DNA from: Patescibacteria group bacterium
Lineage (GTDB): Bacteria; Patescibacteriota; Microgenomatia; UBA8517
Length of the DNA: 64,000 nucleotides
Reading direction: 5' to 3'
Assembly: GCA_035692185.1 (NCBI GenBank)
Contig: DASSIE010000010.1
Coordinates: 2,879 to 66,878, forward strand
Part shown: positions 7,789 through 51,921 of the stretch, one piece after another
How the letters are laid out: the number at the start of each line of letters is the position of its first letter
Position numbering within the stretch: position 1 is the stretch's first letter
Translations under genes and position numbers: made by a program
Notes under the pieces: model-generated
Told to the model about the DNA's origin: nothing
The model's database searches: none
What the model saw: the letters and a program-made list of their open reading frames with translations, nothing else

Positions 7789-8842
7789 AATATCTTTCGG
7801 CCCTAATTTTTTCTCGATGTTGCAAATCGTTTAATACAGTGAGCGATTGGAATATTATTAAAATAATTGTAAGAGAGAGTAAATACTTTGTTGATCTGTT
7901 TTTAGCTTCAAATAAAATATTAATGCCATGAGAAATGATAAACAGCACTATTGGAAAAAATAAAATTAAACGATTTAACGGAGCAAATTCGTTTGCAAGA
8001 ATAGCAGGAACAACTAAAACAGTTGAGATAAATAATAATTTTACAGTCTCTTTTTTTTGGAGTAACTTATATAAACCAAAGCCAAACGGTATTATAAAAC
8101 CAAATAAAATTGGCGGACTAAATGAGAAACCTAAAAGTTTATATTCGGGTGTAAAAAAGGCGATTGGACTTAAGAGCGTCGTATAGCGCAATACCAGCGA
8201 TTCTGCAAAGAATATATACTTATTTTCAGAAATTCTAGCTAAGTTTTTGAAACCATCTTGGCTTGCATTGCCTTGATAACGATTAGCCGTATTAACGAGT
8301 GAAGGATCTTCAAATATTTTTACTTCGGCACTGAAGCTACTTACATTTATATTTATAAAAATAGGAAATGTTAGTATTGCCAAAAAAATCACAGAGGTTT
8401 TGATTTGATTGAAACTAACCAACTTCGAGATTAATAGTAATAATAAAATTAGAGGAATAAATATCAAGAAGATAGAAGATATGTACATTGCAATTCCTCC
8501 AGCTACAATAATCAAAATGTTTCCCAACTTTACCTTGTCATTATTAGTCAGAATCACTCCGTAAATAACGGCGAAGGTCAAAAAGAGTAAGAACAGGTAT
8601 AATGAATGTGCGTATGCCAGGTACCACCCCCATGGTGAAACAAGGTAGATTAAGGGAGCGATTAATGAAAAAGGTTTTTTAAACAATGTTTTACTAATTG
8701 CCCAAATAAGTAGTGGAATTAAAATTGGGTAAATAATATAAAAAATATCGTTAACATTGACAATCTTATGTATTAGTTCTGCAAAAAGAAAATTTTGGGC
8801 AGTATAATAAGGAATCATATATGACAAGATTATCATACCCAA
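7757..8842 (-). CDS. Polytopic integral membrane protein (unknown; possibly GT-C-like or polymerase-like)
   Basis: 361 aa, almost entirely hydrophobic helices. No recognisable soluble catalytic motif. Overlaps neighbours at both ends. Confidence 0.3.
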   Translation of the reverse strand: MGMIILSYMIPYYTAQNFLFAELIHKIVNVNDIFYIIYPILIPLLIWAISKTLFKKPFSLIAPLIYLVSPWGWYLAYAHSLYLFLLFLTFAVIYGVILTNNDKVKLGNILIIVAGGIAMYISSIFLIFIPLILLLLLISKLVSFNQIKTSVIFLAILTFPIFININVSSFSAEVKIFEDPSLVNTANRYQGNASQDGFKNLARISENKYIFFAESLVLRYTTLLSPIAFFTPEYKLLGFSFSPPILFGFIIPFGFGLYKLLQKKETVKLLFISTVLVVPAILANEFAPLNRLILFFPIVLFIISHGINILFEAKNRSTKYLLSLTIILIIFQSLTVLNDLQHREKIRAERYFGDKYQITEP

Positions 8843-10299
8843 AAGTAATTGTCTTTCTTTTTGTTCTTGTCACAACCTTCATTCTTAGGGCTCATAATTA
8901 CGAAAAAGTCCCAACACCAAACCATCTTGATGAGATGTTGTATGCCTGGTCAGGCCTTAGCCTGATTGAAACTGGAACCCCAGTATCGTGGTCAACTTTG
9001 GATTATCCTAAAAGAGCTGAAGTATTCAAAGGAGTCATAAATTACAAAGGGGGGAAACCCGATGCCTCAGTTACTCTTTATAAACCTTGGTTGGACGAGC
9101 CACCTCTTTTTTCGCTCTTGGTTGGTGAATTTGCTCACTTATACCATGCAGATAGGAATCAGTTTGTTCCATCATCTTACATACGTATGCCAATGGTGAT
9201 TATTAGCACATTAACCTCAGTTTTAGTTTTTTTAATTGCATTTGAGGTTTCAGGGTTTGTAAGCGGAATTCTTGCAATGACCATATACGGGTTTACCCCA
9301 ATTTTTGTATTTGCGTCCCGTAACGCAATGCCTGAAACTTTAATTGCATTCCTTTTTGCAGTGGCGATATTTTTGATAATAAAATTTTGGAAAAATCCAA
9401 GTATTTATTATATTTTACCAATTCCAATTTTAGCTGGAATTGCTGGCCTTTCTAAACCTACCGGTTTTTTCATTATCCCAATCGCGATTTTTATGGTTTT
9501 TTGGCGAAAATATCAAGATAACCAGATTGTGTTAGGGTTAAAATATTGTACATATTTGCTTTTGGCAACTTTGCCGTTCATTGGGTTTTTCTATTGGTAC
9601 GGTTTTCATTTTGACGCTGAGATTTTTAAGATAATTACCACCATTCAGTCCAATAGGCCAGTAGGATTTGCCAGTCTTGCATGGTTTTTTATTAGTCCAG
9701 CATTTGAAACTAAGATACTGATTGATGGTTGGTATATATTTTGTTTAGTTTCAGCAATATTTTTAATGTTCTCTGCCTCTCAGTTTAGTGAGAAAGACAA
9801 ACTACGCAAAATTGTTGTTTTTGCATTTGTCTATTGGGTCAGTGTCGTAATGGTTTCGGGAGGGGAGCGAGATTTACTTCCCTGGTATAGATTTCCAATA
9901 TTCCCATTTATGGCAATTTTAGGCGCTTGGGGAATTGAATATATACTCAAGAATGTTAATTTATTTACTAGTTTTATTGCAGTTGGGCTTCTTCTAGGTA
10001 ATCGGGTGCTTCTTGTTAACGCATTTCACCCTAATATTTCTGCTACGAATTATAGAATTATTTTCGCATTATTAATGGCCCCGTCAATAATAAATACAAT
10101 ATTTCAAAAGAAATGGCTTGCAAAGCTGTCAAAATTTGTTGTTGGGTTGGCAATTATTACCGGCCTTATTATAAACTTGATATATATCTATATGGCCTTT
10201 GAAATTGAATGCCAGAGTAAGACTTGCACTTTTGTTCCAACGACACCGTTATCAGTTGTGCATTTTCCAATAATATCTAAATTTATGCCAAAATATTAA
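8821..10299 (+). CDS. GT-C fold membrane glycosyltransferase, divergent GT39-like
   Basis: N-terminal TM then a loop with HLDEMLYAWSGLSLIETGTPVSW (DE motif), then many TM helices (492 aa). First gene of a co-directional, translationally coupled run to 19895. Confidence 0.4.
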   Translation: MTRLSYPKVIVFLFVLVTTFILRAHNYEKVPTPNHLDEMLYAWSGLSLIETGTPVSWSTLDYPKRAEVFKGVINYKGGKPDASVTLYKPWLDEPPLFSLLVGEFAHLYHADRNQFVPSSYIRMPMVIISTLTSVLVFLIAFEVSGFVSGILAMTIYGFTPIFVFASRNAMPETLIAFLFAVAIFLIIKFWKNPSIYYILPIPILAGIAGLSKPTGFFIIPIAIFMVFWRKYQDNQIVLGLKYCTYLLLATLPFIGFFYWYGFHFDAEIFKIITTIQSNRPVGFASLAWFFISPAFETKILIDGWYIFCLVSAIFLMFSASQFSEKDKLRKIVVFAFVYWVSVVMVSGGERDLLPWYRFPIFPFMAILGAWGIEYILKNVNLFTSFIAVGLLLGNRVLLVNAFHPNISATNYRIIFALLMAPSIINTIFQKKWLAKLSKFVVGLAIITGLIINLIYIYMAFEIECQSKTCTFVPTTPLSVVHFPIISKFMPKY

Positions 10300-10304
10300 C
10301 TTAT

Positions 10305-11927
10305 ATGAGAAAAATGCTTTTAATTTTAATAGTTGGAGTTGCCTTTTTTTTACGTGTTAACAAAATTACTCAAGTTCCACCTTCTTTAAACTGGGATGAA
10401 GTATCAATTGGCTATAATGCTTATTCAATACTAAAAACCGGCAGGGATGAATGGGGTAAATTTTTACCGGTTCACTTTAAGTCGTACGGGGAATATAAAT
10501 TACCCGCTCAGATATACGCTTCAATTCCGGCAATTGCAATATTTGGGCTTAATGAATTTGGCGTACGGATAACGCCGGTTATTTATGGCACTTTGACGAT
10601 ACTATTTATATATTTTTTGGTGCAGGAAATGTTTGGGAATAAGTATGTGTCATTAACTTCAGCATTTCTCCTGGCAATTTCTCCGTGGCATTTACAGCTA
10701 ACCAGGGCATCATTTGAGTCTTCATTTTCAGTTTTCTGGGTAGTTATCGGAGCATGGCTTTTTGTTAAAGGGTTCAGCGACAAAAAGTATTGGCTATGGT
10801 CGATATTGCCGTTCATTATATCAATATATACCTACAACGCCGCAAGAGTTTTTACACCGATCTTTTTATTTACAGTTTTTATTGTTTACAGAAGGGATAT
10901 CTTAAAAAATATAAAAATTGTCATTTTTGGCCTTTTAATTTTTGCGATATCGATGATTCCTCTAGCTAATTTTTTTGTAAGTGGGGAAGCTACGGCAAGA
11001 TTTAAGTTGGTTAGCATCACAAATGACCCAGGTTTTGTTTTAAGAACAAATGAGGCTAGGGGAAATACCAAGCTAGTGGCTCCGATGCCTAAATTAATCC
11101 ATAACAAAGTAACACACTATGTCTATGTATTTGTTGGAAATTATTTAAGTCATTTTTCTCCAGACTTTCTCTTCATTAGCGGCGCTGGGCATAAACAACA
11201 ACATGTGCAAGGAATTGGAGAGCTTTACTGGATTCAAGCACCATTTATACTAATTGGACTTTATTATCTTTTTAAAAATAAAAACAAATGGAGGTGGCTA
11301 ATTGTTTCATGGTTATTGATAGCATTTATTCCAGTTGCAGTTACTGTAGACAGTATTCCAAATGCATTAAGGACGATATTGGCGGTGATTCCTTACGCAA
11401 TACTCACGGCACTTGGCGTTTGGCAGATTTCTAACCATAGAATTATTATATTAGTATCACTATCAATTTTAATTATCAGCTTTTCAGGATATTTAAATAA
11501 TTACTACAACGTTTATCCAAAGAGCTATTCTCGTGACTGGCAATATGGTTACAAACAGGTAGCTTCATATATAAAAGCTAATTATAATAATTACGATTTA
11601 ATAGTTTTTAGTCGTACTTATGGGGAACCCCATATGTTTACTTTATTTTTCCTAAACTGGGATCCAGCAAGTTTCCAGAACAATCCAAATTTAGATAGAT
11701 ATGAGGCATACAGATGGATTTGGGTTTCTAAGTTCGACAAATTTTATTTCCCAGATTTAGGAGACAGTGGCACTAAATTTGAAGATGTTAAGAAGCAAAA
11801 CAAGGGTAAGAAAATACTGTTTATTGGTAAAGATGGCGATTTTCCCGACTCAGTCAAAAAATTATTGACAGTAAATTTTTTGAACGGCAATCCAGCATTT
11901 GAAATTGTTGAAATAAATGAAAAATAA
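10305..11927 (+). CDS. GT39/GT83-like (PMT/ArnT-type) membrane glycosyltransferase
   Basis: FLRVNKITQVPPSLNWDEVSIGYNAYSILKTGRDEWGKFLPVHFKSYGEYKLP. Polytopic. Conserved C-terminal domain (DWQYGYKQV...YGEPHMFTLFFL). Confidence 0.55.
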   Translation: MRKMLLILIVGVAFFLRVNKITQVPPSLNWDEVSIGYNAYSILKTGRDEWGKFLPVHFKSYGEYKLPAQIYASIPAIAIFGLNEFGVRITPVIYGTLTILFIYFLVQEMFGNKYVSLTSAFLLAISPWHLQLTRASFESSFSVFWVVIGAWLFVKGFSDKKYWLWSILPFIISIYTYNAARVFTPIFLFTVFIVYRRDILKNIKIVIFGLLIFAISMIPLANFFVSGEATARFKLVSITNDPGFVLRTNEARGNTKLVAPMPKLIHNKVTHYVYVFVGNYLSHFSPDFLFISGAGHKQQHVQGIGELYWIQAPFILIGLYYLFKNKNKWRWLIVSWLLIAFIPVAVTVDSIPNALRTILAVIPYAILTALGVWQISNHRIIILVSLSILIISFSGYLNNYYNVYPKSYSRDWQYGYKQVASYIKANYNNYDLIVFSRTYGEPHMFTLFFLNWDPASFQNNPNLDRYEAYRWIWVSKFDKFYFPDLGDSGTKFEDVKKQNKGKKILFIGKDGDFPDSVKKLLTVNFLNGNPAFEIVEINEK

Positions 11928-13263
11928 TTTTATTTTCGCCTTTGTTTTATTTTTATTTCTTGTCTCAAGAATTTATGGAATTGCAGAAATTCCAAAGTCT
12001 GTATATTGGGATGAGGCATCAATTGGATATAATGCATTTTCAATTGCAACTGACTTAAAAGATGAATGGGGAGAAAAGTTGCCATTACATTTTCGAGCAT
12101 TTGGAGAATTTAAACTCCCAGTTTATATTTATACGGTAGCGATTTTTGTAAAAGCAATTGGATTAAATGAATATGCAATAAGACTTCCGGCAGTTTTTTA
12201 TTCATTGGGCTCATTGATACTTGTCTATTTATTAACAAAAAAAATTACAGACAATGAACACACTGCAATTTTTGCAAGTTTTATTCTTATTTTTTCCCCT
12301 TGGTTTTTTATATTTTCAAGAACCGGGTATGAGACAACGGCAGGCCTTTTTTTCTTCTTGTTAGGAACCTACCTTTTTCTTGAGCATACCAAAAAGGGTA
12401 TTTATATTCTCTTTGGAATAATGTCTTTCATTTTGTCATTTTATAGCTATAACTCTTTTAGAGTTATTATCCCGATATGGTTAAGTTTAATGCTGATTTA
12501 CACATACAGTAAAAAGAACATCCCTATAATTATTATTTCGATATCAATTTTTTTGGTTAGTTTAATTCCTGTTTATAGACTTTATAAATTTGATTCGGGG
12601 GGTGCTCGCTTCGCCCAAGTTGAAATTACTAGCAAATTTGATTTTATTAAAAATTATGTTGCCCATTTTTCTCCAAACTTTCTTTTTCTAAAAGGGGACA
12701 CAAATCCTCGCAGCCAAATTCCGGGTCATGGTCAACTTTATTTGTTTGAATTACCACTTTTGCTCCTTGGTTTAGTTGCAATCATTAAGAGCAAAAAAGC
12801 ATTATATTACATACCTTTAATAATTCTTATTTTGGCTCCAATTCCGGCCTCTCTCACTCGTGAGTCGCCACATGCATTAAGATCCCTTCTCGCGGCTCCT
12901 GCTTTTGCAATGATGTCCGCATTAGGAATATATTTTCTGGCGGCCCATTTTAAAAAATACTCAAGCCTAATTGTCTTATTTGTAATAATTTGTTATTACC
13001 TATCCTTTGAGTCATACATGACATCTTTTATAACAAAATACCCATCTCTTTCTGCTTCTGATTGGCAATATCAGTATAAAGAGATATTTGCGACGCAAAA
13101 AAGTGGTAATGTTTCAGATAAATATGCTCAGCCATATATTTTTGCCCTTTATTATTTAAAGTACCCTCCTCAAAAGTTTAGAGATGAAGTTAAATTAAAC
13201 CCAATTAACGATTGGGGGTTTTCTAAAGTCTCATCATTTAACGGATTCAAATTTATAAAATGA
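11917..13263 (+). CDS. GT39/GT83-like (PMT/ArnT-type) membrane glycosyltransferase
   Basis: IAEIPKSVYWDEASIGYNAFSIATDLKDEWGEKLPLHFRAFGEFKLP. C-terminus DWQYQYKEI...PYIFALYYLKYPP. Overlaps the upstream gene. Confidence 0.55.
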   Translation: MKNNFIFAFVLFLFLVSRIYGIAEIPKSVYWDEASIGYNAFSIATDLKDEWGEKLPLHFRAFGEFKLPVYIYTVAIFVKAIGLNEYAIRLPAVFYSLGSLILVYLLTKKITDNEHTAIFASFILIFSPWFFIFSRTGYETTAGLFFFLLGTYLFLEHTKKGIYILFGIMSFILSFYSYNSFRVIIPIWLSLMLIYTYSKKNIPIIIISISIFLVSLIPVYRLYKFDSGGARFAQVEITSKFDFIKNYVAHFSPNFLFLKGDTNPRSQIPGHGQLYLFELPLLLLGLVAIIKSKKALYYIPLIILILAPIPASLTRESPHALRSLLAAPAFAMMSALGIYFLAAHFKKYSSLIVLFVIICYYLSFESYMTSFITKYPSLSASDWQYQYKEIFATQKSGNVSDKYAQPYIFALYYLKYPPQKFRDEVKLNPINDWGFSKVSSFNGFKFIK

Positions 13264-14825
13264 ATAAACTGAAACTAGTTGCCTTATTTTTTATTTTTAT
13301 TTTGGCTGCTGTTTTAAGGTTTTATAAAATTGACAAAGTTCCAGCCTCGCTTAATTGGGATGAGGTAGCGGCTGGTTATAATGCTTACACAATTGCCAAT
13401 TGGGGAGCGGATGAGTATGGTAAAAAGTTCCCAATAGTTTTTAAAAATTTTGGAGACGACAAACACCCTGTTCATATCTATATTACCGCGGCAGTTGTGA
13501 AAATATTTGGATTTTCAGATTATTCAACTCGTGCAGGTAGTGCACTTGTCGGCATGCTTATGGTTGTTGCAATTTATTTTCTTGCAAAAGAAATATTTAA
13601 AAGTGAACTCGCGGGAATTTTATCAAGTTTATTTTTTGCGGTTTCTCCATATGCAATACATTTTTCTAGAGGTTTATGGGAAGCAAATTTTGCGCTTTTT
13701 TTTATGGTTGCCGGAGTTACCGCTTTTTACTTAGGACTTAGGAAACAAAATTTTCTTATTCCGTTATCGTTTTTATTTTGGGGATTATCTTTTTTTTCGT
13801 ATCATTCCGCAAAAATTGTTGTTCCTCCATTAGTTTTATTTCTACTAGTAACTCATTTTAAAGAATTTATTATAAATAAAAAAAATTTGCTTTGGGCGAT
13901 ACTAATAACAATATTTTTTGCAGGCCTCATTATAAAGGAGCCTAGAATATTAGGATTTGCCAGAATTAATCAAACAAGATTTCCTGAAGAAGTAACTCAA
14001 AAATATGGTGGTGAGTTTGGAACAATTGCCCACAATTATAAAGACTATTTTACATATTCATATTTATTTGAAAAGGGAGATCAAACCCCAAGAGGTTCGG
14101 TAAAAGTGATTGGCGAATTTTACAGAATAGATTTTATTCTTTCTCTTGTTGGACTTTCTGTTCTTTTTGTCAAAAAGAAATGGGAAGTTTTGACTATTTT
14201 GTTTTCCTGGCTGTTACTCGCCCCAATTCCAGGTGCTGTATCTTCGGTTGACCCAGGTGCAACAAGGGGGATATTTATGCTAGCCCCGATTTTACTCCTT
14301 TCTGCATATGGAGCAACATCAATTGTACAAATGTTAAAACAAAATTGGGCAAAGTATTTATCAATTGTAGTTATATTAATATTTTTGGGATGGGAAGCTT
14401 TAAACTTTATAAATTACTATTTCAATACTTATCCCGTAAAAGATGCCATTGAATGGCAATATGGGATGAAAGACTCAGTTGCCTATGCTCAGAAGCACTC
14501 CGATTATAGCCTTGTATATATGGACAAAATAAGACAACAGCCATATATTTTCTTCCTTTATTACTTAAAAGTCCCACTTCCCGAGCTCTTGCGTTCGGTT
14601 AAATATGACCAAACAATATCTAGTAGTTACAATACAGTCTCTTCTTTTGGAAAGTACAATTTTGGAAATTGGGATCCAATAGAAAGTTATCCTTCTGCTG
14701 ATATTTTATACATTATTACACCCAGTTTTTATTCAGGGCTAAGATATATATCAAGCTTTGTCGTCCGCAAACTGGTAAAATATCCAGACGGCACTGATGC
14801 CTTCTATTTAGTATCTGGAAAATGA
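13260..14825 (+). CDS. GT39/GT83-like (PMT/ArnT-type) membrane glycosyltransferase
   Basis: FYKIDKVPASLNWDEVAAGYNAYTIANWGADEYGKKFPIVFKNFGDDKHP. C-terminus EWQYGMKDS...PYIFFLYYLKVP. ATGA overlap with the upstream gene. Confidence 0.55.
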   Translation: MNKLKLVALFFIFILAAVLRFYKIDKVPASLNWDEVAAGYNAYTIANWGADEYGKKFPIVFKNFGDDKHPVHIYITAAVVKIFGFSDYSTRAGSALVGMLMVVAIYFLAKEIFKSELAGILSSLFFAVSPYAIHFSRGLWEANFALFFMVAGVTAFYLGLRKQNFLIPLSFLFWGLSFFSYHSAKIVVPPLVLFLLVTHFKEFIINKKNLLWAILITIFFAGLIIKEPRILGFARINQTRFPEEVTQKYGGEFGTIAHNYKDYFTYSYLFEKGDQTPRGSVKVIGEFYRIDFILSLVGLSVLFVKKKWEVLTILFSWLLLAPIPGAVSSVDPGATRGIFMLAPILLLSAYGATSIVQMLKQNWAKYLSIVVILIFLGWEALNFINYYFNTYPVKDAIEWQYGMKDSVAYAQKHSDYSLVYMDKIRQQPYIFFLYYLKVPLPELLRSVKYDQTISSSYNTVSSFGKYNFGNWDPIESYPSADILYIITPSFYSGLRYISSFVVRKLVKYPDGTDAFYLVSGK

Positions 14826-15682
14826 AGAAACTCTCAATAGTACTGGCTACAAGAAATGAGCAAGAAAACTTAGCAAGATGTCTGGAGTCTGTTAAGGGGT
14901 TTGCAGATGAAATTATTGTTGTAGATGAATACTCTACAGACAAAACAGTTGAAATTGCCAAAAAATACGGGGCAAAAGTTTTTCTTGAACCACATCATGC
15001 TGTTTTTCATATAACAAAGCAAAAAGCATTAGATAAGGCTACGGGGGAGTGGGTACTCCAACTTGATGCAGACGAAGTGATATCTGATGAGCTTGCAAAA
15101 GAGATTAAATTAGCCATTAGCCATCAGTCATTAGCCATTAGCCCCAAAAAACAAAGACTGTTTAATCGACACCAAAGATTAATAGAAAATAGAGACGGTC
15201 TGATAGGTAAAAAAACTGGGGAGATAGTGGGCTATTTTATTGCACGGCGCAACATGTTTTTAGGTAAACCATTAATTCATGGTGGTGTATACCCCGATGG
15301 TGTTATAAGGCTTGTGAAAAATGGCAAGGCACATTTTCCTCAAAAGTCAGTTCATGAACAGATAGAGCTTGATGGAGAAGTCTATTGGCTTTCAAACGAC
15401 ATGTTGCATTACGACTCTCCAACTTTTGAAAGGTACCTCACCCGTTTAAACAGATATACAGATTTGCAGGCAGTCGAGTTAGAAGAAAATAAAGTCTCAA
15501 AAGGATTTTTCGGTCTTTTTCAATATACAATATACAAACCCCTGTATACCTTTTTAAATTTATACATTCGTCACCTTGGTTTCCTTGACGGTATGCGCGG
15601 TTTTGTGTGGGCATTATTTTCATCACTGCGTTATCCAATAGCATATTTTAAATATTGGGTAGAGAAAGGTAAAGACAAATGA
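14822..15682 (+). CDS. GT2 family glycosyltransferase (paralog of 56513..57238)
   Basis: LSIVLATRNEQENLARCLESVKGFADEIIVVDEYSTDKT...QLDADE, with C-terminal FLDGMRGF motif. Carries an extra in-frame LAISHQSLAIS repeat relative to its paralog. Confidence 0.6.
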   Translation: MKKLSIVLATRNEQENLARCLESVKGFADEIIVVDEYSTDKTVEIAKKYGAKVFLEPHHAVFHITKQKALDKATGEWVLQLDADEVISDELAKEIKLAISHQSLAISPKKQRLFNRHQRLIENRDGLIGKKTGEIVGYFIARRNMFLGKPLIHGGVYPDGVIRLVKNGKAHFPQKSVHEQIELDGEVYWLSNDMLHYDSPTFERYLTRLNRYTDLQAVELEENKVSKGFFGLFQYTIYKPLYTFLNLYIRHLGFLDGMRGFVWALFSSLRYPIAYFKYWVEKGKDK

Positions 15683-16686
15683 AAATAGCAATCGATAGCA
15701 GTCCGCTTACAAGTGGACATAAGATTAGAGGAGTAGGTTTTTATACTAGAAATTTAATAGCAGCGCTTGGAGACAATGTTGAGGCTGTTGATTTTAGTAA
15801 AGCAAATTTGAGTAAATACGATGTTATTCATCTACCATATTTTAATCCATTTTTTATCGACATACCTTTTGTTACTAAGCCAAAGTTAGTAGTAACAATT
15901 CATGACACAATTCCGTTGATCTATCCGGATATTTACAAACCTGGAATAAAGGGAAGAATTAGATTTTTTATTAATAAGTTAATCCTCAAAAGGGTAAGCG
16001 CGGTAATAACTCTTACAGAAACCTCCAAAAAAGATATCGTTAGGTTATTGGGAATTCCCGCTAAAAAAGTTTTTCCAATTTTCTTAGCTCCGGCGGTAAG
16101 GCCGAAAATTGTAAATAACGAGAAAGATAGGATTAGGAGGAAATATAATCTTCCTGAAAAATATGCTTTCTATGTAGGTGATATAAACTATGTAAAAAAC
16201 ATTCCAAGGATGGTGGAAGCTTGTAAAAAGGCGAAAATAGTACTTGTCATGTCTGGTAAACAAGTAAAAGACATAGAAAATCAAGATTTAAATCACCCAG
16301 AATTAGCGCATCTAAAAGGTATCAATTGGTCAGGGGTTATTAGGTTGGGGTATGCCCCAGATGAGGATGTGCCTGTGATATTTAGCATGGCAAGCGTCTT
16401 TGTACACCCCGCTTTGTATGAAGGCTTTGGTATAACAATAATAGAGGCAATGTCGTATGGAGTTCCGGTGGTTGCTGGTAAGGCACAGGCCTTAGTAGAA
16501 ATAGGTCAAGGCGGTTGTCTGTTCGCCAATCCAAAAAGTACCAACGACATCTCTGAAAAAATATCTGAAGTTCTTACAAACAAAACTCTTAGAAACCAAT
16601 TAATTGAAAGTGGAAAAGTGCTTGCTAAAAGTTACTCTTGGGAGAAAACTGCAAAAGAAACTTTAGAAGTTTACCGCCATGTATAA
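15679..16686 (+). CDS. GT4 family glycosyltransferase (GT-B, retaining)
   Basis: C-terminal EGFGITIIEAMSYGVPVV signature of Glycos_transf_1/GT4. Confidence 0.65.
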   Translation: MKIAIDSSPLTSGHKIRGVGFYTRNLIAALGDNVEAVDFSKANLSKYDVIHLPYFNPFFIDIPFVTKPKLVVTIHDTIPLIYPDIYKPGIKGRIRFFINKLILKRVSAVITLTETSKKDIVRLLGIPAKKVFPIFLAPAVRPKIVNNEKDRIRRKYNLPEKYAFYVGDINYVKNIPRMVEACKKAKIVLVMSGKQVKDIENQDLNHPELAHLKGINWSGVIRLGYAPDEDVPVIFSMASVFVHPALYEGFGITIIEAMSYGVPVVAGKAQALVEIGQGGCLFANPKSTNDISEKISEVLTNKTLRNQLIESGKVLAKSYSWEKTAKETLEVYRHV

Positions 16687-17824
16687 AAAAATCACTCTTT
16701 CGTTTTTGATTTGGCGTGTTGCACTTTTTTTAATTGCTTTTTTGGCTATTTATATTATCCCTGTCTATGGTGCTAGATTTCCGTATGTAGATAGGGTATT
16801 GGAAATTACACACCTTCCAAACTGGATTTGGGGATTTGGTGGTTTTGATGGTGTTCATTATCTTCGTATTGCCCAAGATGGTTATTTTGCTCAATTTTCA
16901 CAGGCATTTTTCCCATTATTTCCAATTTTGATTAAGGTTTTTTCATCTATTTTCCCGAGAGTTCCCAATCTTGATACCAATATTTTTACAGACCCTGCAT
17001 ATTTTTATTCAGGATTGATTCTCGCTAATTCATTTTTTCTCGGTTCCCTTTATATTTTATACAAGTTAATACTTATTGATTTCAAGAAGGATGTAGCATT
17101 TTTGACAATTATCCTACTTTTAGTATTTCCAACTTCTTTTTATTTCGGCGCGGTTTACACTGAGTCACTATTTTTGCTTCTCGCAGTGTTATCTGTTTAC
17201 CTTGTTAGGAAGAATAACTTCTTTTGGGCGGCTGTTCTAATTTCACTTGCAACTGCAACAAGAGTTTTTGGTGTGTTACTAATTCCTTTGTATATCATTG
17301 AAGTTGTTAAAAATAAAAATAAACTGAATTATCTTTGGACATTAATCACCCCTCTAGGCATATTGAGCTATATGTATTTTTTAAAAACTGAATTTAATAA
17401 TCCAATTTCTTTTTTAACAAGTCAGCCACTTTTTGGCGCTGGTCGTTCTGGAGGAGAAATAATTCTATTGCCCCAAGTCATATACAGATACTTAAAGATA
17501 TTTGTATCGATTGATCTATCTACATTAGGTTTTTTAAATGCATTTTTAGAATTTACATTTGCGCTCGTTCCATTGACATTTCTGATAGTATTTTTTAAGA
17601 AAATGAGGTTAAGTTACTGGATTTTTTCAGTTGGTACACTTTTGTTGCCAACATTCACTGGAACGTTTTCATCCATGCCAAGATATGTCCTAATCCCTAT
17701 GGTTTTACTTTTCCCAACTCTAATTATCCGATTTAGAAAGTATATTAAACCTGCTATTCTTATTTCTTGTATCCTAGGAGTTATCCTGACAATTTTATTT
17801 ATCAGAGGCTATTGGGTTGCATGA
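16679..17824 (+). CDS. Polytopic mannosyltransferase-like membrane protein (PIG-V/Gpi18-like, GT-C)
   Basis: The first loop motif FGGFDGVHYLRIAQDGYFAQFSQAFFPLFPIL resembles the D..HY..IA..GY...AFFPL signature of the PIG-V family. 381 aa with about 9 TM helices. Confidence 0.4.
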   Translation: MYKKITLSFLIWRVALFLIAFLAIYIIPVYGARFPYVDRVLEITHLPNWIWGFGGFDGVHYLRIAQDGYFAQFSQAFFPLFPILIKVFSSIFPRVPNLDTNIFTDPAYFYSGLILANSFFLGSLYILYKLILIDFKKDVAFLTIILLLVFPTSFYFGAVYTESLFLLLAVLSVYLVRKNNFFWAAVLISLATATRVFGVLLIPLYIIEVVKNKNKLNYLWTLITPLGILSYMYFLKTEFNNPISFLTSQPLFGAGRSGGEIILLPQVIYRYLKIFVSIDLSTLGFLNAFLEFTFALVPLTFLIVFFKKMRLSYWIFSVGTLLLPTFTGTFSSMPRYVLIPMVLLFPTLIIRFRKYIKPAILISCILGVILTILFIRGYWVA

Positions 17825-17828
17825 TTAT

Positions 17829-17862
17829 GAGTGTTTACAAATGATGAGTGTTTACAAATGAT
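17829..17862 (+). repeat. 17-bp perfect tandem duplication (gagtgtttacaaatgat x2) at the 5' end/leader of the flippase gene
   Basis: Read directly: 17829-17845 equals 17846-17862. It lies between the upstream stop (17822-17824) and the probable ATG ATG start at 17858/17861. Confidence 0.9.
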
Positions 17863-19138
17863 GATAAAACGAATTAAATCTATAATCGCTCACCCATTTT
17901 TTACTAGCAGTGCAATTATGGTTTTAGGAAGTAATTTTGCAAATGCACTGGCATTTATCTACCACCTTGTTATTGGAAGACTTTTGGGTCCTGTTCACTA
18001 CGGGGAACTTGCTGCCGTAATTTCACTGGCCACAATGTTTTCTGCCATTTTTACTTTTCTAAGCACTGTCGTAATTAAATTTACATCAAGCGCTAAGAAT
18101 AGAGATGAAGAGAACTATATATTTTCATGGTTTTCTCAAAAAAGTTTTTTTATTGCCTTAACACTTTTTATTTTGACACTAATATTTTCCCCAATATTTT
18201 CAAATTTTCTCCATATTGAATTAAAGGTTGTGTTGTTAGTTCCATTTTTCTTGTTTTTCTCATTGTTATCGATGGTGTTTAAGTCTTTTTTGCAAGGCCT
18301 CCTCAAGTTTTATGAAACAGTAATATCGTTAAATACAGAATTTATTCTAAGATTGTTATTGGGCATACTTTTTGTTTACCTTGGCTTCTCAGTTTATAGC
18401 GCAATATTAGGTATAGCAATCTCTGGAGCAATTGGTTTTTTTATAACCTTTTATTTTCTAAGGGATTACAAAGTATTGTTCAAAGGTAAAAAAATTAATT
18501 TTAATAAATAAATTTTAGCTTATTCATTGCCTGCATTTCTTTTTTCATTGACCTCCACTTCTTTTTTGACAACGGACACACTTTTAGCAAAACACTTTAT
18601 TGGCGCACACGATGCGGGTATTTACGCTTCACTTTCTAATTTAGGAAAAATAATTTTATACGGAACTATCCCCATCGGAGCTGTAATGTTTCCAATGGTT
18701 TCTAAAAGATTCTCAAAGGGACAAGGTTATATGAGAGTATTTTTGCTTAGTCTAATGCTAACATTTTTGGCTTCAGTTGTAGTTTTAGCAGTGTATAAAT
18801 TTTTGCCAGATGTTGCGATTAATATTTTATATGGAACTAGCTTTTTGGAAGGTGATAAATATTTAATCTGGTTTGGCCTTTTTGCATCAATTTATAGTCT
18901 TACAAGTTTAATTTGCTCATTTTATATGTCTATTGGAAAGGTACGAATTGTTATCTTGCCAATAATTTTTGCGATACTCCAGATAATTGGAATTATATTT
19001 GTTCATGATTCCATAATCGATATTATTAAAGTTTCAGTGGTTTCGGCTACACTTCTTCTGGTTTCTTTGTTAATATACCTTGTATATGAAACCAGAGCCA
19101 AAAACAAACTTAATATCGGTAGTGATCCCGGCCTATAA
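17831..19138 (+). pseudogene. wzx: Wzx-type oligosaccharide flippase (MOP superfamily) interrupted by a single in-frame TAA
   Basis: ORFs 17831..18511 and 18527..19138 are in the same frame, separated only by TAA at 18509-18511 (...KINFNK*ILAYSLPAFLF...). Together about 434 aa with Wzx-like N-half (GSNFANALAFIYHLVIGRLLGPVHYGELAAV) and C-half (LAKHFIGAHDAGIYASLSNLGKII). Could be a true pseudogene, a sequencing error or readthrough. Confidence 0.55.
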
Positions 19139-19895
19139 AGCTGAAACCTTTATTGTCAAAACCCTCACGGGTGTTAAAAATACACTCGATCAAATTCGTT
19201 ACCCATACGAAATTATATGTGTCGTTGATGGCAAAATCGACAAAACTTTTGAGAAAGCTACGAAATTTGCCGGTTTATATCCAAGAAAAATAAAGGTTAT
19301 TGGTTACAAAAAGAACATGGGCAAAGGTAACGCTGTTAAATTTGGCATGGCCAGGGCAAAAGGAAATATAATAGGGTTTATTGACGCTGGGGTTGAACTT
19401 AATCCAAACGGCATATCTATGTTACTTGAACATTTTGAATGGTATAGTGCAGACATTGTAGTGGGGTCAAAGAGGCACGCCGCATCAAAAATATATTACC
19501 CTTGGTACAGAAAAGTAATGTCCTTTGGCTATCAGGTCATCGTTGGGATATTGTTTGGTCTTAAGGTGAAAGATACACAAGTTGGCATGAAATTTTTTAA
19601 GAAAGAAGTTGTAAAAAAAGTATTGCCAAGACTTTTGGTTAAAGCATTTGCTTTTGACATAGAAATGCTATCAGTTGCAAATTATTTAGGTTATAAACGG
19701 ATTTATGAAGCCCCGGTTGAGCTCAAAATGAAGTTTTCAAATGCCTCGACAATTATGTCTAAAGGTTTTTTAAAGACTGTTTTATCGGTTTTTATAGATA
19801 CGTTGGCAGTATTCTATCGCTTGCACATCCTTCATTATTACGATTACAAAAACAGAAAGAATTGGATTATCCCAAAATATTTAATTCTGAAATAG
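19080..19895 (+). CDS. Dpm1/Alg5-like GT2 polyprenol-phosphate glycosyltransferase
   Basis: LISVVIPAYKAE...MGKGNAVKFGMARAKGNIIGFIDAG...KDTQVGMKFFKKEV (TQ.G.K motif of Dpm1/Alg5/GtrB type). Overlaps the flippase 3' end. Confidence 0.65.
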   Translation: MYMKPEPKTNLISVVIPAYKAETFIVKTLTGVKNTLDQIRYPYEIICVVDGKIDKTFEKATKFAGLYPRKIKVIGYKKNMGKGNAVKFGMARAKGNIIGFIDAGVELNPNGISMLLEHFEWYSADIVVGSKRHAASKIYYPWYRKVMSFGYQVIVGILFGLKVKDTQVGMKFFKKEVVKKVLPRLLVKAFAFDIEMLSVANYLGYKRIYEAPVELKMKFSNASTIMSKGFLKTVLSVFIDTLAVFYRLHILHYYDYKNRKNWIIPKYLILK

Positions 19896-37601: not shown

Positions 37602-39818
37602 TTGATTGTAACATTAAAGCCAGTGTATTTGTATTTTGGATATAATATACTTGCACAAGTGAAAAAATTAATATTTCGTTTTAAAGACCAACTTTTCCTA
37701 ATTTGTTTATCATCCTCCCTAGTTTTTATATGGTTTTATAAAGGATTGATATTCGCTGGTGGAGAAGAGGGAATACCATTTTATAACCTTAACAATGCGT
37801 TTTACCTTTTTGCATATTCTTGGAGAGATTTTTCAGGTGGAATTCCAATGTCAACTGATTTAGCTAGAATTCCATTTTTTTGGATTCTTAAACTTCTAAG
37901 TAACTATTCAATACCTTCTTACTTTCTCCAAGCCGCCACCTTTTTAACGTTAATTATCGTTGGAGTTGTATCAGTATACTATTTGTTAAAAATAACTTTG
38001 GGCAACAGATTAAAATCAGGTTCACTTTTAGAACAAAGGTTATACAGTAAAGTCTCGCTTATTGGAGCTATTTTTTACCTATTAAATCCCTATTCAATGG
38101 TTCAGGTCTGGGGAAGAGGTTTGTATAACCAGTTTTTCCCCTTTGCGTTACTTCCTTTGTTTCTGGTTTTATTTATTCAGGGTGTTAAAAAGAAAAGATT
38201 TATATATGGTTTGTTGGCAGTTATTTCTTCCCTACTACTATCAGTATCGTTTGGTCAGCCTAGTTATGTTATTTCAATTTGGTTAACAATTTTTATCTAT
38301 ATAGTTTTTGAAGTATTTAAAACAAAAGATTTTGCACAGCGAAAATTTATAATTTTATACTCCTTAACAGTTTTTACGTCATGGATATTGGTGCATTCAT
38401 GGTGGATTTGGCCACTGTTTAAAACAATTAATGAAACGGTTGATAAGTTGGGTGATTTGCAATCTAATATTGGAAGTTTAAAGGGGATTAGTAAGGACTC
38501 TCCAATCTGGGTCATTATGACACTCACCCACAAATTCTTATTTGCAGGAGCTTACGGAAATATATATTCAGGACTTCCCTTTAAATTGATAAGTTTATTG
38601 GTACCAATATCTTTTTTTGTTTCATTACCACTTTTTAAAAGATTTAGTTACTTCAAATTTTATTTATGTTTATTTTTGGTATCAATTTTTATTGTTTCGG
38701 GTACAAATTTTCCATTTGGTTGGCTATTTCTTTGGTTTTTCAAGAATATTTCAATTTTTCAAGTCTTTAGGAATCCCTATGAAAAAATGGGAATTGTGTT
38801 AATGCTTGCTTGTATTCCCTTCATTTCCATTGGTCTTGTAAAAACAAGTATTTTAATACACAAATTTTATAAAAAAATTTCTGCAAAAGTATTTTTATTG
38901 ATTCTTATGTTTTTAATGTGCGGAATTTATGTTTGGCCGATGTGGACAGGTCAATTTGCAGGAGGGGTTGTTATGAGTCCATGGGCTAGTGTGCCAGTTG
39001 ATTACAAACTAGCCAATGATTGGATTAAAAGCCAGGACACAAATTCTCGAATAATTCAATTCCCATTAAACCCCGGGGACGGTGTTTTCTATACATGGCA
39101 AAATGCATATAGGGGAATTGAACCTAGCGAATTTATTTTTGATAATTCATCGATCGGAAGGAATGTGGCTATAAATAAAGTTTACTACAATGTTTTACTG
39201 GAAAGGTTTGGCGTCTTACAGAAAAACGCTTTTGGCCCAGACCCCGATATTTCTTCCTCTGAATTTCGTTCAGAAAATTTATATCAGGAATTAAACAAAC
39301 TTGATGTTAGATATATTGTTTTACATAACGATATTAATGAGAAATTAAGTGGCTTACAAAACTCAAAAGAGGTCTCCCAATATTTATCAAAGCAAAAAAA
39401 TATACAAAAGGTTAATACATTTGGTTTATTAGATATCTACGAAGTTAAAGTTCGCGATGGGGTAGATCGTATATATTCGCCAAATGTAAAGACAAATTAT
39501 CAAAAAGTTAATCCAACTTTTTACAGATTCAATGTTGAAAATTCAACTTCTAAAGCCCAGCTTAATTTTTTGGAAACATATAGCCCAAATTGGGAGTTAT
39601 TTATTGATGGTAAAGAAATCGAAACACATTCAATAGTTTTTTCTTATGCCAATTCATGGACTATCAACAGAACTGGTACCTATTCAGGGTACATTAAATA
39701 CAAAACTCAAGATTATGTTACTGAGGGTGGAAAAATTAGCATTGTAACTTTAATCGTGTTAATAATAATGATTGTGGTTTTAGTTTTGAAAAAGAGAATA
39801 AAAAAAGAACAATGGTAA
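37602..39818 (+). CDS. Large GT-C-like membrane protein with extracytoplasmic C-terminal domain and C-terminal TM anchor (YfhO/AftD-like architecture), paralog 1 of 3
   Basis: 738 aa. N-terminal motif GGEEGIPFYNL and FRNPYEKMGIVL are shared with 44170..47715. C-terminal NWELFIDGKEI...YSGYIKYK beta-rich domain, then the final TM LIVLIIMIVVLVL. Confidence 0.4.
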   Translation: MIVTLKPVYLYFGYNILAQVKKLIFRFKDQLFLICLSSSLVFIWFYKGLIFAGGEEGIPFYNLNNAFYLFAYSWRDFSGGIPMSTDLARIPFFWILKLLSNYSIPSYFLQAATFLTLIIVGVVSVYYLLKITLGNRLKSGSLLEQRLYSKVSLIGAIFYLLNPYSMVQVWGRGLYNQFFPFALLPLFLVLFIQGVKKKRFIYGLLAVISSLLLSVSFGQPSYVISIWLTIFIYIVFEVFKTKDFAQRKFIILYSLTVFTSWILVHSWWIWPLFKTINETVDKLGDLQSNIGSLKGISKDSPIWVIMTLTHKFLFAGAYGNIYSGLPFKLISLLVPISFFVSLPLFKRFSYFKFYLCLFLVSIFIVSGTNFPFGWLFLWFFKNISIFQVFRNPYEKMGIVLMLACIPFISIGLVKTSILIHKFYKKISAKVFLLILMFLMCGIYVWPMWTGQFAGGVVMSPWASVPVDYKLANDWIKSQDTNSRIIQFPLNPGDGVFYTWQNAYRGIEPSEFIFDNSSIGRNVAINKVYYNVLLERFGVLQKNAFGPDPDISSSEFRSENLYQELNKLDVRYIVLHNDINEKLSGLQNSKEVSQYLSKQKNIQKVNTFGLLDIYEVKVRDGVDRIYSPNVKTNYQKVNPTFYRFNVENSTSKAQLNFLETYSPNWELFIDGKEIETHSIVFSYANSWTINRTGTYSGYIKYKTQDYVTEGGKISIVTLIVLIIMIVVLVLKKRIKKEQW

Positions 39819-47715: not shown

Positions 47716-47933
47716 TTTATTGGATTTTATTAATAATTATTATTATTTTTACAAAATATAAAGTTGCTAGTGGGACTCTCTTTCAAGCAGGTTTAATAAT
47801 GATGCTAGTTGGAGCTTTTTTTGATATTTTTAAACTAACTGATATTTCAGAAATGTTGTTAAGTGCGGCATTAATTCTTTGGGTTGTTGGAATTGTCGGA
47901 ACCTGTATAGATCTATATAAACATAAATTATGA
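47712..47933 (+). CDS. Small hydrophobic membrane protein (73 aa), unknown
   Basis: Two to three predicted TM helices. Translationally coupled (ATGA) between two giant paralogs. Confidence 0.3.
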   Translation: MIYWILLIIIIIFTKYKVASGTLFQAGLIMMLVGAFFDIFKLTDISEMLLSAALILWVVGIVGTCIDLYKHKL

Positions 47934-50683
47934 TTAAGCGTGATACTGTTTTTCTGATGTTGATTTTGATCTTTGTCTTTTTTAATTTATTTTTGCCATT
48001 TCCACATATTGCATCCGATCTTCACCTTAGTTTTAAAGATCAACTTTTATCCCAATTTTCCATTCCTTCAGCTTGGACATCTAGTGGTTCTTCTGGTCTT
48101 GGACAATCTGCTTCTCTTTTACTTTGGAATTGGCCAATAACATTTTTGTTTGGGGCTTTTGGAAAATTAGGAATGTCCCACCAATTTCTGCTTAAAATTT
48201 TTGGTTTCCTTCCGATTATTTTACTTGGTATTTTTTCACTTAATAAATTTTTTGAAAAAATAAAAATTTCTGAAAATTCAAAACTTGTCGCGAAAGTGTT
48301 TTATATGACAACTACATATTTTCTACTTTTAGTTGATGGTGGACAATTATCAATCGCCCTTTGTTATGCATGGTTTCCTTTTTGCTACATTAAGTTTATT
48401 GAATGTGTTGATGGTAATATATCTGACAAAATCGTCGCTGCTTTGTCTATAACCATTTTAGGATTTTTGGATATTAGATTTATATATGTACTATTAATAC
48501 TAATATTCCTTCATTTTATATTTAACTTAGTTTTTTTGTCATTCAAGGAATGGAGTTCACATATTGGTAAATGGTTCAATGCCATTTTTGCAATTGGAAT
48601 AATCGGTATCACCATTAATTTTTATTGGATTTTGCCGATTATTTTATCAAGGTCAACAGACGCTTCGTTGTTAAATATTCGTGAGTCTCAAACCCATTTT
48701 TTAAATTTTACTCAGTTTAAAAATGCAATCTCCCTCCTTCAGCCACATTGGTATAGAAATATTTTTGGAGTGATATCTGCATTTAAAAAAGAGTTTTTAT
48801 TTATACCACTTCTGGCCTTTATGTCACTATTTATGTATAGGAAAAACAAAAGAGTGTGGTTTTGGACCCTGATAGCAATAATTTCAGTTTTTTTAACAAA
48901 AGGAGATAACCCTCCATTTTCAGGAATTTATCCGTGGTTATTTACACATATACCTGGATTTTTCCTATTCCGCGATTCAACAAAGTTTTTCTTTTTAGTT
49001 TCCCTTTCGTATGCAGTTTTAATTTCGTATACAGTTGATAGTTTAATAAAAAGATTACCAAAAATTAAAATTATTTTTCCTGTTTTATTAATTTTATTTT
49101 TCCTTTTTTTAACGAGACCTATTTTCCTTGGTCAGATGACAGGAATATTTTCAAAGCCTTCATATACGGATGAGTATTTATCTCTTGGAAATAAACTTGA
49201 GAAGGACACATCATTTGGAAGAGTATTGTGGCTACCTCTCAAAGCCCCAATGGGTTTTGCATCGTTAACGCATTCAGGAATTGAAGCTAATAGATTGGAA
49301 TCAATTCGCCCATTTGCTATTGGTACGGTTGGGGCATATGAAACGCAAAACTTTATTAGGGAAGCAGACTACATGGGTGAGCTTTTTAGTATTGCTGGGA
49401 TAAAATATATTACATATCCATATCTAGATCCAAAGCGTGACGATATGTTAAAAGAAAAAGTAGATTATTATGGTACATTCTCAAATCAAATTAAAAGTTT
49501 ACTTTGGGTTGGCGACACAGTTTCCGATTTTCCAATATCAGTTTTTAAAACAAAAGAAAATGAGGGAAAAATTTTCCTTTCCAAAAATACGTACTATGTG
49601 GTCGGTTCTGATAGATTGTATTCAGATATTGTAAAATTAGGCGCGAAATTTAAAGATAACGCTTTAGTATTTGTTGAAGAAGGCAAAAATTTAATAAATA
49701 AAATTGTAGAAACACCAGGTGCAAATATAATTGTTTATGATAAAAATCTTACAGATTTAGCACTATCCTTCACCCAAACCAGCAACTTTATTTCACCAAG
49801 TTCAATTCTAGGATTTTCGCCAGGCAAAACTGGCTGGTGGAAAAGGGAAGCAATCGACTTGGTATGGACTCGCGATTTTTTGCAACAAAAATATGGCATT
49901 GATAATTTAGATTTTGATTACGGGGAAGGGTGGGCGATTGCTGAAGGAGATAGGGAATTAACAATTACCAATAACCAATTTACAAAAGGGAAAATACTTT
50001 ACGCAAGAGTTATGGAAAGCAGTAGAGGCGGGAACATTGAATTTTGGCAGGGGAACAATAAACTTGGGGAAGTAAATACAAAAATTGAAACTCCCGAGAA
50101 AGTTGTAATAAAACTAACAGGAAACGTTACCTTGCCAGATAAATTTTATAGATATGATAAAGCAAACTTTCATTGGGTGAAAATTGGAGAATTGTTGAAT
50201 AATTCTAATTTAACAATAAACACAAAAGGTGACATAAACATACTTAACACTTTAGCTGTAATTTCAAAAGAACAGGAAAACAATATTTTCCAAAGTGTTG
50301 ATAAATTAGTAAACGACAAAAAAATAGTAGAATGGGATAGTCTAACAATTAGCGATAAGAAAAAATTGCTGTTTGGCGCAGACACACCAATCGTTTCATA
50401 CACAACACTTTCACAAACGCATTACAAAATTAAGGTCGAAGGATTAAAAAATCCGACCACTTTATTTTTTTCAGAGACCTTTGATAGTAATTGGGAGTTG
50501 AATAATCAAAAAGGATACAAACTGTACAGTTTTATAAATGGTTTTTGGATTGACCATAATGGGGAATACGATCTTTATTTTTCCCCGCAAAAATATGTGC
50601 TTCCAGGGCTCATTGTAAGCATGATAACTCTAGCTTCTTGTATAATGTTTCTTATATGGAAAAGATCAAAGAAATCTTCCTAA
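47930..50683 (+). CDS. Giant GT-C-like membrane protein (YfhO/AftD-like architecture), paralog 3 of 3
   Basis: 917 aa. Polytopic N-domain, large soluble domain, C-terminal SNWELNNQKGYKLYSFINGFWIDHNGEYDLYF, then the final TM LIVSMITLASCIMFLIW. Same C-terminal module as the other two. Confidence 0.4.
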   Translation: MIKRDTVFLMLILIFVFFNLFLPFPHIASDLHLSFKDQLLSQFSIPSAWTSSGSSGLGQSASLLLWNWPITFLFGAFGKLGMSHQFLLKIFGFLPIILLGIFSLNKFFEKIKISENSKLVAKVFYMTTTYFLLLVDGGQLSIALCYAWFPFCYIKFIECVDGNISDKIVAALSITILGFLDIRFIYVLLILIFLHFIFNLVFLSFKEWSSHIGKWFNAIFAIGIIGITINFYWILPIILSRSTDASLLNIRESQTHFLNFTQFKNAISLLQPHWYRNIFGVISAFKKEFLFIPLLAFMSLFMYRKNKRVWFWTLIAIISVFLTKGDNPPFSGIYPWLFTHIPGFFLFRDSTKFFFLVSLSYAVLISYTVDSLIKRLPKIKIIFPVLLILFFLFLTRPIFLGQMTGIFSKPSYTDEYLSLGNKLEKDTSFGRVLWLPLKAPMGFASLTHSGIEANRLESIRPFAIGTVGAYETQNFIREADYMGELFSIAGIKYITYPYLDPKRDDMLKEKVDYYGTFSNQIKSLLWVGDTVSDFPISVFKTKENEGKIFLSKNTYYVVGSDRLYSDIVKLGAKFKDNALVFVEEGKNLINKIVETPGANIIVYDKNLTDLALSFTQTSNFISPSSILGFSPGKTGWWKREAIDLVWTRDFLQQKYGIDNLDFDYGEGWAIAEGDRELTITNNQFTKGKILYARVMESSRGGNIEFWQGNNKLGEVNTKIETPEKVVIKLTGNVTLPDKFYRYDKANFHWVKIGELLNNSNLTINTKGDINILNTLAVISKEQENNIFQSVDKLVNDKKIVEWDSLTISDKKKLLFGADTPIVSYTTLSQTHYKIKVEGLKNPTTLFFSETFDSNWELNNQKGYKLYSFINGFWIDHNGEYDLYFSPQKYVLPGLIVSMITLASCIMFLIWKRSKKSS

Positions 50684-51921
50684 CAGCTACTTTTAGACAG
50701 TCAAGCCTAACGACTTTTGGAACAATTGCCAATGGCTTCCTAGGTGCAATTTTTTACATTCTTGTTGCAAGAATGTTGGGGCCAGCACAATTTGGACTTT
50801 TTAGTATAGCTACACTTGTTTTAAACATGGTGGCAGATATTGGGGATTTGGGAACAAATACTGGACTTGTTAGGTTTGTAGGTGGAAATAGAGTTAACAA
50901 CCCGGAAAAAGCAAATAGATTTTTAAAACTTGGGTTAGAGGTAAAAATATTGGCATCTATAGTTATTGGAGTAGTTGGGGTCTTGGCGTCTTCCTGGATT
51001 GCAGTTTTCTTATTTAAAAAACCCGAACTTACTAATCTTTTACAGTTTGCATTTATCGGTGTTTCTGGTTCGTTACTTTTTTCTTTTATTTTGACAACAC
51101 TGCAAGCATATGAACGTTTTTGGTCGTGGAGTTTAATTCAAGTAATATCCAATAGCGGAAGAGTGATATTAATAATATTTTTTTATAATTTTTTAACGGT
51201 TTCACCAATTACTTCAATGGGGATTTATATAGTTATACCACTATTAAGTTTTATAGCGGGTCTTTTCGTGACTTCAACACGATTTTTTAAGGTAAGAGGG
51301 GAGACTTCAGAAATTAAAGAATTTTTTCATTACAACAAATGGGTGGCCCTATTTACCTTGATTGCAGCTTTCTCTGCACGTCTAGATAGTTTTCTAACTG
51401 CAAGATACTTAACTTTTTTTGAGATTGGAATTTATGCGGCTGCCACACGTGTTACACAAATAGTTCCTCAGATTGTTGGAGCAATTTCAACAGTTGTGGC
51501 ACCAAAAATGGCAGGAATTGGTACAAAAAGTGAATTCATAGAATATATGAAAAAGACTCAACTTTTTGTTTTTTCAATCGCACTTCTTGGGATACTGTCA
51601 ATTCCAGTAATCTCCTATTTAATTCCAATCATTTTTGGCAGTGCTTATTCGGCTTCAATACCGATATTTATAGTATTACTTTTTGCAATGTTATTTTTAT
51701 TAATCTCAATACCAGTACACACTGCAGTTTTTTATTATTTTTCCTATCCTAAACTTTTTGTCTGGATAAGCACCGCCCATTTAATTATAGTGGCTCTAAG
51801 TGGGTATTTCTTTATCCCCACATATGGGGTTATGGCGATAGCATACAGCGTATTGTTTGCTGGTATAGTTGATTTTGTGGTTCCTGGTATTTGGGTACTT
51901 AACAAATTACGAAAGGCATAG
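50638..51921 (+). CDS. wzx: Wzx-type oligosaccharide/polysaccharide flippase (MOP superfamily), intact
   Basis: FGTIANGFLGAIFYILVARMLGPAQFGLFSIATLVLNMVADIGDLGTNTGLVRF. About 12 TM helices. The true start is possibly MEKIKEIF at 50656. Confidence 0.6.
   Translation: MYNVSYMEKIKEIFLTATFRQSSLTTFGTIANGFLGAIFYILVARMLGPAQFGLFSIATLVLNMVADIGDLGTNTGLVRFVGGNRVNNPEKANRFLKLGLEVKILASIVIGVVGVLASSWIAVFLFKKPELTNLLQFAFIGVSGSLLFSFILTTLQAYERFWSWSLIQVISNSGRVILIIFFYNFLTVSPITSMGIYIVIPLLSFIAGLFVTSTRFFKVRGETSEIKEFFHYNKWVALFTLIAAFSARLDSFLTARYLTFFEIGIYAAATRVTQIVPQIVGAISTVVAPKMAGIGTKSEFIEYMKKTQLFVFSIALLGILSIPVISYLIPIIFGSAYSASIPIFIVLLFAMLFLLISIPVHTAVFYYFSYPKLFVWISTAHLIIVALSGYFFIPTYGVMAIAYSVLFAGIVDFVVPGIWVLNKLRKA

Follow-up and report, generated by a model that had tools for sequence, protein, structure and literature searches.

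The 64-kb stretch of DNA that was analysed, hereafter called the window, carries on its forward strand a gene for a Wzx-like flippase that is interrupted by one in-frame TAA and preceded by a perfect tandem duplication of 17 nt. The flippase gene lies between genes coding for a membrane mannosyltransferase and a GT2 glycosyltransferase, and a second, intact flippase gene is found further downstream in the same window (Table 1). The deposited annotation of this region is present in NCBI only, as a third-party MAG with locus tags VFI61_ and a contig of 74,525 nt. In it the two halves of the first flippase gene are given as separate CDSs, HET7098864.1 and HET7098865.1, which share one product name and were identified by exact-sequence look-up. 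The ATT start given to HET7098865.1 seems to have been chosen on the basis of homology and not of a start signal.

Table 1. Location of the flippase genes, their flanking genes and the features examined in the window
Feature	Position	Strand	Description
Upstream gene, PIG-V-like membrane mannosyltransferase (PF04188)	16679..17824	+	HET7098863.1
Perfect tandem duplication	17827..17864	+	17-nt unit ATGAGTGTTTACAAATG, 2.2 copies; TRF, 100% identity
Wzx-like MOP/PST flippase gene, as one unit	17861..19138	+	425 codons including the TAA at codon 217; terminal TAA 19136-19138
N-terminal half of the flippase	17861..18511	+	216-aa CDS HET7098864.1, 'oligosaccharide flippase family protein'
In-frame TAA	18509..18511	+	T at 18509 in the window, G in Logan contig L004 (codon GAA, Glu)
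C-terminal half of the flippase	18512..19138	+	208-aa CDS HET7098865.1, ATT start directly after the TAA
Downstream gene, GT2 glycosyltransferase	19086..19895	+	269 aa, HET7098866.1; overlaps the 3' end of the flippase gene by 53 nt
Second, intact MOP/PST flippase paralogue	50656..51921	+	421 aa, HET7098892.1; in its own GT2/glycosyltransferase and methyltransferase module

Flippase gene and glycan-synthesis neighbourhood

The flippase belongs to a conserved block consisting of GT4, PIG-V-like mannosyltransferase, flippase and GT2 genes. This gene order was conserved in the relatives L001, L003, L051 and L052, and the 53-nt overlap between the flippase and GT2 genes was also observed in L003 and L052. 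Four consecutive PMT_2-type GT-C glycosyltransferase paralogues are located at 8821-14825, and GT2 and GT4 genes, methyltransferases and epimerases are found as well, the whole window being one glycan-synthesis island of a Patescibacteria (Microgenomates-type) genome. The host is an uncultured groundwater-type bacterium.

Several further features of this neighbourhood were recorded. An ORF of 738 aa (37602-39818) gave a weak AftD-like GT-C match, and two very large ORFs located directly upstream of the second flippase (44170-47715 and 47930-50683; 1181 and 917 aa, respectively) gave no Pfam match. The GT4 gene at 15679-16686 codes for 335 aa in the window, versus 408 aa in L001-L003 and 361 aa in L052. 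In the closest relatives, L001 and L002, which are from Hainich groundwater assemblies, the GT2 and GT4 genes of the block are separated by an oppositely oriented Y1 transposase gene of the IS200/IS605 type (L001 2883-3563, L002 3-680); the window has no transposase at that place. The GTDB records of L007, L010, L011, L013, L016 and others are titled 'uncultured Gammaproteobacteria bacterium' (binchicken or SRP co-assembly TPA MAGs), and such titles on Patescibacteria-type loci look like placeholders or mislabels.

The TAA at 18509-18511 is in frame both with the sequence running from 17831, 17858 or 17861 to 18508 and with 18512..19138. ORF and domain analysis confirmed what an earlier note on this DNA had described, namely two ORFs of the same frame parted only by this codon. 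The same note had proposed that the joined ORFs specify a complete Wzx-like product of about 434 aa; the completeness of the product held, while its length is 425 aa (216 + 1 + 208 codons), homology placing the start at the second ATG, 17861, and not at GTG 17831.

Search of the joined product against Pfam gave matches to PF01943 with 72.9 bits (cut-off 28.2) and to PF13440 with 49.5 bits (cut-off 23), both above the gathering scores. The PF01943 match crosses the stop without indel (residues 20-283 against profile positions 7-272, E = 3.7e-20), and each half of the flippase alone passes one Pfam model. A profile search of the PDB sequences and the comparison with NCBIfam models gave no match to the flippase. 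Intact homologues of 425 aa aligned end to end with the joined product, and no indels were found near the stop or elsewhere, the best homologues being 80-69% identical. Among the matches listed, all 120 homologues were full-length, single proteins of 375-447 aa, and those carrying a name were assigned to Woesebacteria or to the Patescibacteria group.

The AF2 model of the joined product, built on the homologue alignment, was all-helical, with a pLDDT of 83.9 and a pTM of 0.84. Its sole long non-helical loop comprises residues 201-219 and lies between two six-helix lobes; the stop, which is residue 218 in the 426-residue numbering of the model, falls inside this loop. Foldseek comparison against the PDB retrieved MATE, MurJ and WzxE at probability 1.00, with TM 0.70-0.76 over ~420-440 aligned columns. 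Three features by which a PST/Wzx-like flippase is recognised were found: matches to the Polysacc_synt family profiles PF01943 and PF13440, the two-lobe, roughly 12-helix MOP fold in both the AF2 and the Foldseek analyses, and a location in a glycan cluster with GT2, GT4, PIG-V-like and four PMT_2 GT-C neighbours. The region 17861..19138 is predicted, from sequence and model, to be an ordinary, conserved and complete Wzx-like MOP flippase gene.

The tandem duplication ahead of the start codon

The 17-mer gagtgtttacaaatgat is present twice, back to back, at 17829-17845 and 17846-17862. The array that it forms is the best-scoring tandem array of the window (TRF, period 17), and no further copies of the 17-mer with up to 2 mismatches were found in the window; two matches occurred in 0 of 100 shuffles. 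The duplication occupies the 36-nt spacer from the upstream TGA (17822-17824) to the flippase ATG and leaves the coding frame, the start codon and the start-proximal 17 nt unchanged.

A 17-bp tandem duplication upstream of the gene, possibly the outcome of recent slippage and possibly an assembly error, had been reported in the earlier note. The duplication itself was recovered by TRF at 17827-17864, and an identical two-copy duplication is carried by contig L004 of the Logan assembly described in the next section. The two-copy state is not an assembly ambiguity because the 38-nt period-17 array holds no repeated 31-mer, and with two copies in both assemblies the explanation by assembly error fails. 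In the relative L006 (72% identical) only one homologous copy, ATGCGTTTTTACATATG, stands between the TGA of the upstream gene and ATGATG, and the spacers of the other relatives, 0-20 nt long, are unrelated; the state of the window is therefore a derived tandem duplication. The 17-nt unit is bounded by ATGA microhomology which, together with the single copy of L006, supports a recent slippage event. The duplication would thus be a separate and real event, in which recent slippage between ATGA microhomologies took place in the untranslated leader, and it is most likely neutral. Promoter and terminator signals in the duplicated leader were at chance level only, and no RNA-structure signal above chance was detected there (fold z-score +1.0).

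Each 17-nt unit also forms a five-codon mini-ORF (ATG AGT GTT TAC AAA TGA), and the following ATG overlaps its stop codon (TGATG). The resulting chain extends over 17822-17863 and consists of the upstream stop, mini-ORF 1 (17827-17844), mini-ORF 2 (17844-17861) and the flippase ATG (17861), and L006 has one homologous mini-ORF (ATG CGT TTT TAC ATA TGA) in the same place. Judging from the sequence, this chain may act as a translational-coupling relay.

The in-frame TAA in a second assembly and in relatives

Exact-protein look-ups with the neighbouring genes retrieved the same strain from a single Logan run, SRR25158199, in which three contigs correspond to the window: L004 (window 10679-18511), L005 (18527-23060) and L055 (23047-34099). 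Alignment of these contigs with the window over 23,420 nt revealed one mismatch only, G versus T at 18509. The contigs cover all the bases of the flippase gene except 18512-18526, and the 1,263 gene bases that they contain (17861-18511 and 18527-19138) are identical to those of the window except at 18509. The stop results from one substitution, G to T, in Glu codon 217 (GAA to TAA). Since the Logan contigs differ only by the G at 18509, the same strain exists with GAA at codon 217, and since the covered gene bases are otherwise identical there is no sign of decay. No T-bearing path at 18509 was found in the Logan assembly, scanning of genome and metagenome contig collections with a 38-mer across the SNP (N at 18509) gave no further copies of the strain, and a literature search for run SRR25158199 found no paper.

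Comparison with orthologous loci, which the earlier note had recommended, indicated that the homologues are uninterrupted at the position of the stop. The stop column is occupied by Glu in 9 of 13 close homologues and by Asp, Lys, Thr or Ala in the rest, and codon 217 is GAA in L052, L054 and L006, GAG in L001 and L051 and GAT in L003. About 50 orthologues are without interruption at this position. No mid-gene stop was present in 44 of the 45 GTDB loci; only L046 is disrupted mid-gene, by frameshifts. This last locus (L046 1805-2820), the flippase orthologue of a Woesebacteria MAG (LacPavin_0920_WC90_MAG_37_8), is another damaged draft-MAG copy.

Simple assembly errors would, according to the earlier note, show themselves by a sense codon at 18509-18511 together with a single 17-bp copy. 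The sense codon, GAA, was found in the near-identical, independent assembly, while the single copy was not, both assemblies holding two. For the stop, the suggested sequencing or assembly error, or the closely related possibility of a population variant of very recent origin, fits the GAA of the near-identical assembly.

The coding sequence just past the stop contains an imperfect tandem repeat with a 22-nt unit (18523-18567; 2.1 copies, 87%). Its translation, SLPAFLF/SLTSTSFL, is conserved in relatives, and the repeat looks like a coding coincidence. A frameshift or an assembly break brought about by this repeat was considered and rejected, the relatives aligning without indel and the amino acids being conserved.

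Origin of the TAA and comparison with known systems

The Logan contig L004 ends at 18511, 2 nt past the variant, and L005 starts at 18527, leaving a gap of 15 nt, while a second Logan break, at 23047/23060, has a 14-nt overlap. Both breaks are located in stretches with a GC of ~0.2, among the lowest 4-6% of the window. A graph branch would be expected to leave an overlap of 30 nt, which is found at neither break. As the Logan assemblies are built with k = 31 from k-mers that occur more than once (PMC12424806), the G-bearing 31-mers were seen at least 2 times. All 31-mers touching 18512-18526 are absent from the reported Logan contigs, including the variant-free ones starting at 18510-18526. 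The simplest reading of the break is thin coverage in AT-rich sequence, and the two breaks suggest that the strain has low coverage in SRR25158199. If the MAG was built from SRR25158199 alone, then the gap would be crossed by 1 read at most, necessarily one with the T. The GAA at the end of L004 is not explained by read-through into a TruSeq adapter, which would give GAT instead.

Our verdict is that the TAA stems either from an error in the consensus or from a nonsense mutation of very recent date, and is ordinary in either case. Of the two, a consensus artefact at 18509 is the likelier, with chances that appear to be about even. The course of events would then be that read support was thin in the very AT-rich stretch around 18509, that the MAG assembler probably bridged the site by means of one or very few reads with a G-to-T miscall, that the T in the deposited contig turned Glu codon 217 from GAA into TAA, and that automatic annotation then split one gene into two CDSs. 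G-to-T changes are a familiar type of damage or sequencing error. Against an artefact, the MAG may come from another run of the same site, in which case the T is perhaps well supported and the allele real; many assemblers accept a k-mer only when it has been observed at least 2 times, a requirement that would speak for real T reads; and the Logan break could be a variant bubble at 18512-18526 with unreported branches shorter than 150 bp, pointing to real heterogeneity. A real, very recent nonsense allele (Glu217 to stop), present beside the intact GAA within one population or at one site, is nearly as likely as the artefact, although by itself it falls somewhat short of an even chance. Cells with this allele would have the N-terminal lobe only and would lose the flippase, and the overlapping downstream GT2 gene would probably be expressed less. 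That the two assemblies differ at 18509 and nowhere else in 23.4 kb agrees with such an allele, as does the break 2 nt away, which a polymorphism would help to explain by halving the k-mer counts per allele; loss-of-function variants in surface-glycan genes are, moreover, common in bacterial populations. On the contrary, the allele would be the sole polymorphism in 23.4 kb and would happen to be nonsense, thin coverage is needed anyway since the SNP-free 31-mers starting at 18510-18526 are missing too, and the T has no path in the Logan assembly. If the nonsense allele is real, it would mean the loss or change of one surface glycan, as in an ordinary loss-of-function variant. It is improbable that it is, beyond being real, maintained beside the intact allele as a population on/off polymorphism of one surface glycan, for instance under phage or host-attachment pressure, with the duplicated mini-ORF leader additionally tuning the translational coupling of the flippase; were that polymorphism true, its carrier would be an ultra-small, probably episymbiotic lineage of Patescibacteria.

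The presence of a second MOP flippase in the same window led the earlier note to consider decay permitted by redundancy. The second gene is real, with its start at ATG 50656 instead of 50638, but an established pseudogene made dispensable by it is very unlikely. The several lesions or the divergence of an established pseudogene were not observed, the only lesion in 23.4 kb being one substitution and the other covered bases of the gene being identical to those of the assembly with GAA. The two flippases share 23% identity over 332 residues and each is located in its own glycosyltransferase module. Their orthologues occur together on relatives' contigs of 839,992 nt (P0006 and P0123 for the first and second flippase, respectively) and 57,873 nt (P0002 and P0129), the first being intact on both; the retention of both flippases is thus the normal state and speaks against simple redundancy. 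Equally hard to credit is a programmed interruption, whether by two half-transporters, by readthrough or reassignment of TAA, or by an on/off switch based on the 17-bp repeat, even though the stop lies exactly in the inter-lobe loop of the model, where a split would do least structural harm, and the repeat immediately precedes the start codon. A split at the position of the stop was found in none of the 120 listed homologues and none of the 45 GTDB loci, and the Logan contig has GAA there. Near the stop, no ATG, GTG or TTG codon preceded by a ribosome-binding site is available to start the second half: no Shine-Dalgarno-like sequence precedes ATT 18512 or TTG 18527, and the first usable start after the stop is ATG 18686, which would lose a helix. 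Reassignment or readthrough of TAA was rejected, as TAA is the commonest genuine stop (27 of the 53 long ORFs of the window, with TGA in 16 and TAG in 10), no other gene has an in-frame TAA, the stop at 18509-18511 is the only domain-interrupting one in 64 kb, and no tRNA genes were found in the window; where other neighbouring ORFs share a frame, they are separate genes that begin with their own ATG one codon past the stop. The on/off switch entertained by the earlier note does not agree with a stop that is a substitution without a repeat tract, nor with a 17-nt repeat that is located outside the coding frame and numbers two copies only, in one assembly as in the other.

The significance of the TAA mainly concerns data quality: HET7098864.1 and HET7098865.1 should be read as one protein of 425 aa. 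Neither a new mechanism nor a new family is involved.

Three groups of known systems were compared with the locus. The flippase resembles the Wzx/PST flippases (E. coli WzxE, PDB 9g9m, with MurJ and MATE as relatives) in its Pfam families, in the two-lobe helical fold and in the glycosyltransferase neighbourhood, while it is only 13-19% identical in sequence to the solved MOP structures and its deposited copy carries the stop at codon 217. Phase-variable (contingency) genes for surface glycans are alike in that a surface-glycan gene has a tandem repeat beside the start codon. The repeat of the window, in contrast, consists of two copies of 17 nt and is not a hypermutable short tract; it is intergenic and outside the frame, is without copy-number variation between the two assemblies and is unrelated to the substitution that created the stop, and the simple-sequence repeats of phase variation were thus not found, promoter-like matches also being at chance. 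A further parallel is to genes split by point nonsense in draft and MAG genomes, which arise as annotation artefacts of a consensus error or as recent loss-of-function alleles and where likewise a single substitution in an intact, conserved ORF is accompanied by adjacent CDSs of the same name and by an intact allele elsewhere; all that sets the present site apart is that an assembly breaks there, in AT-rich sequence.
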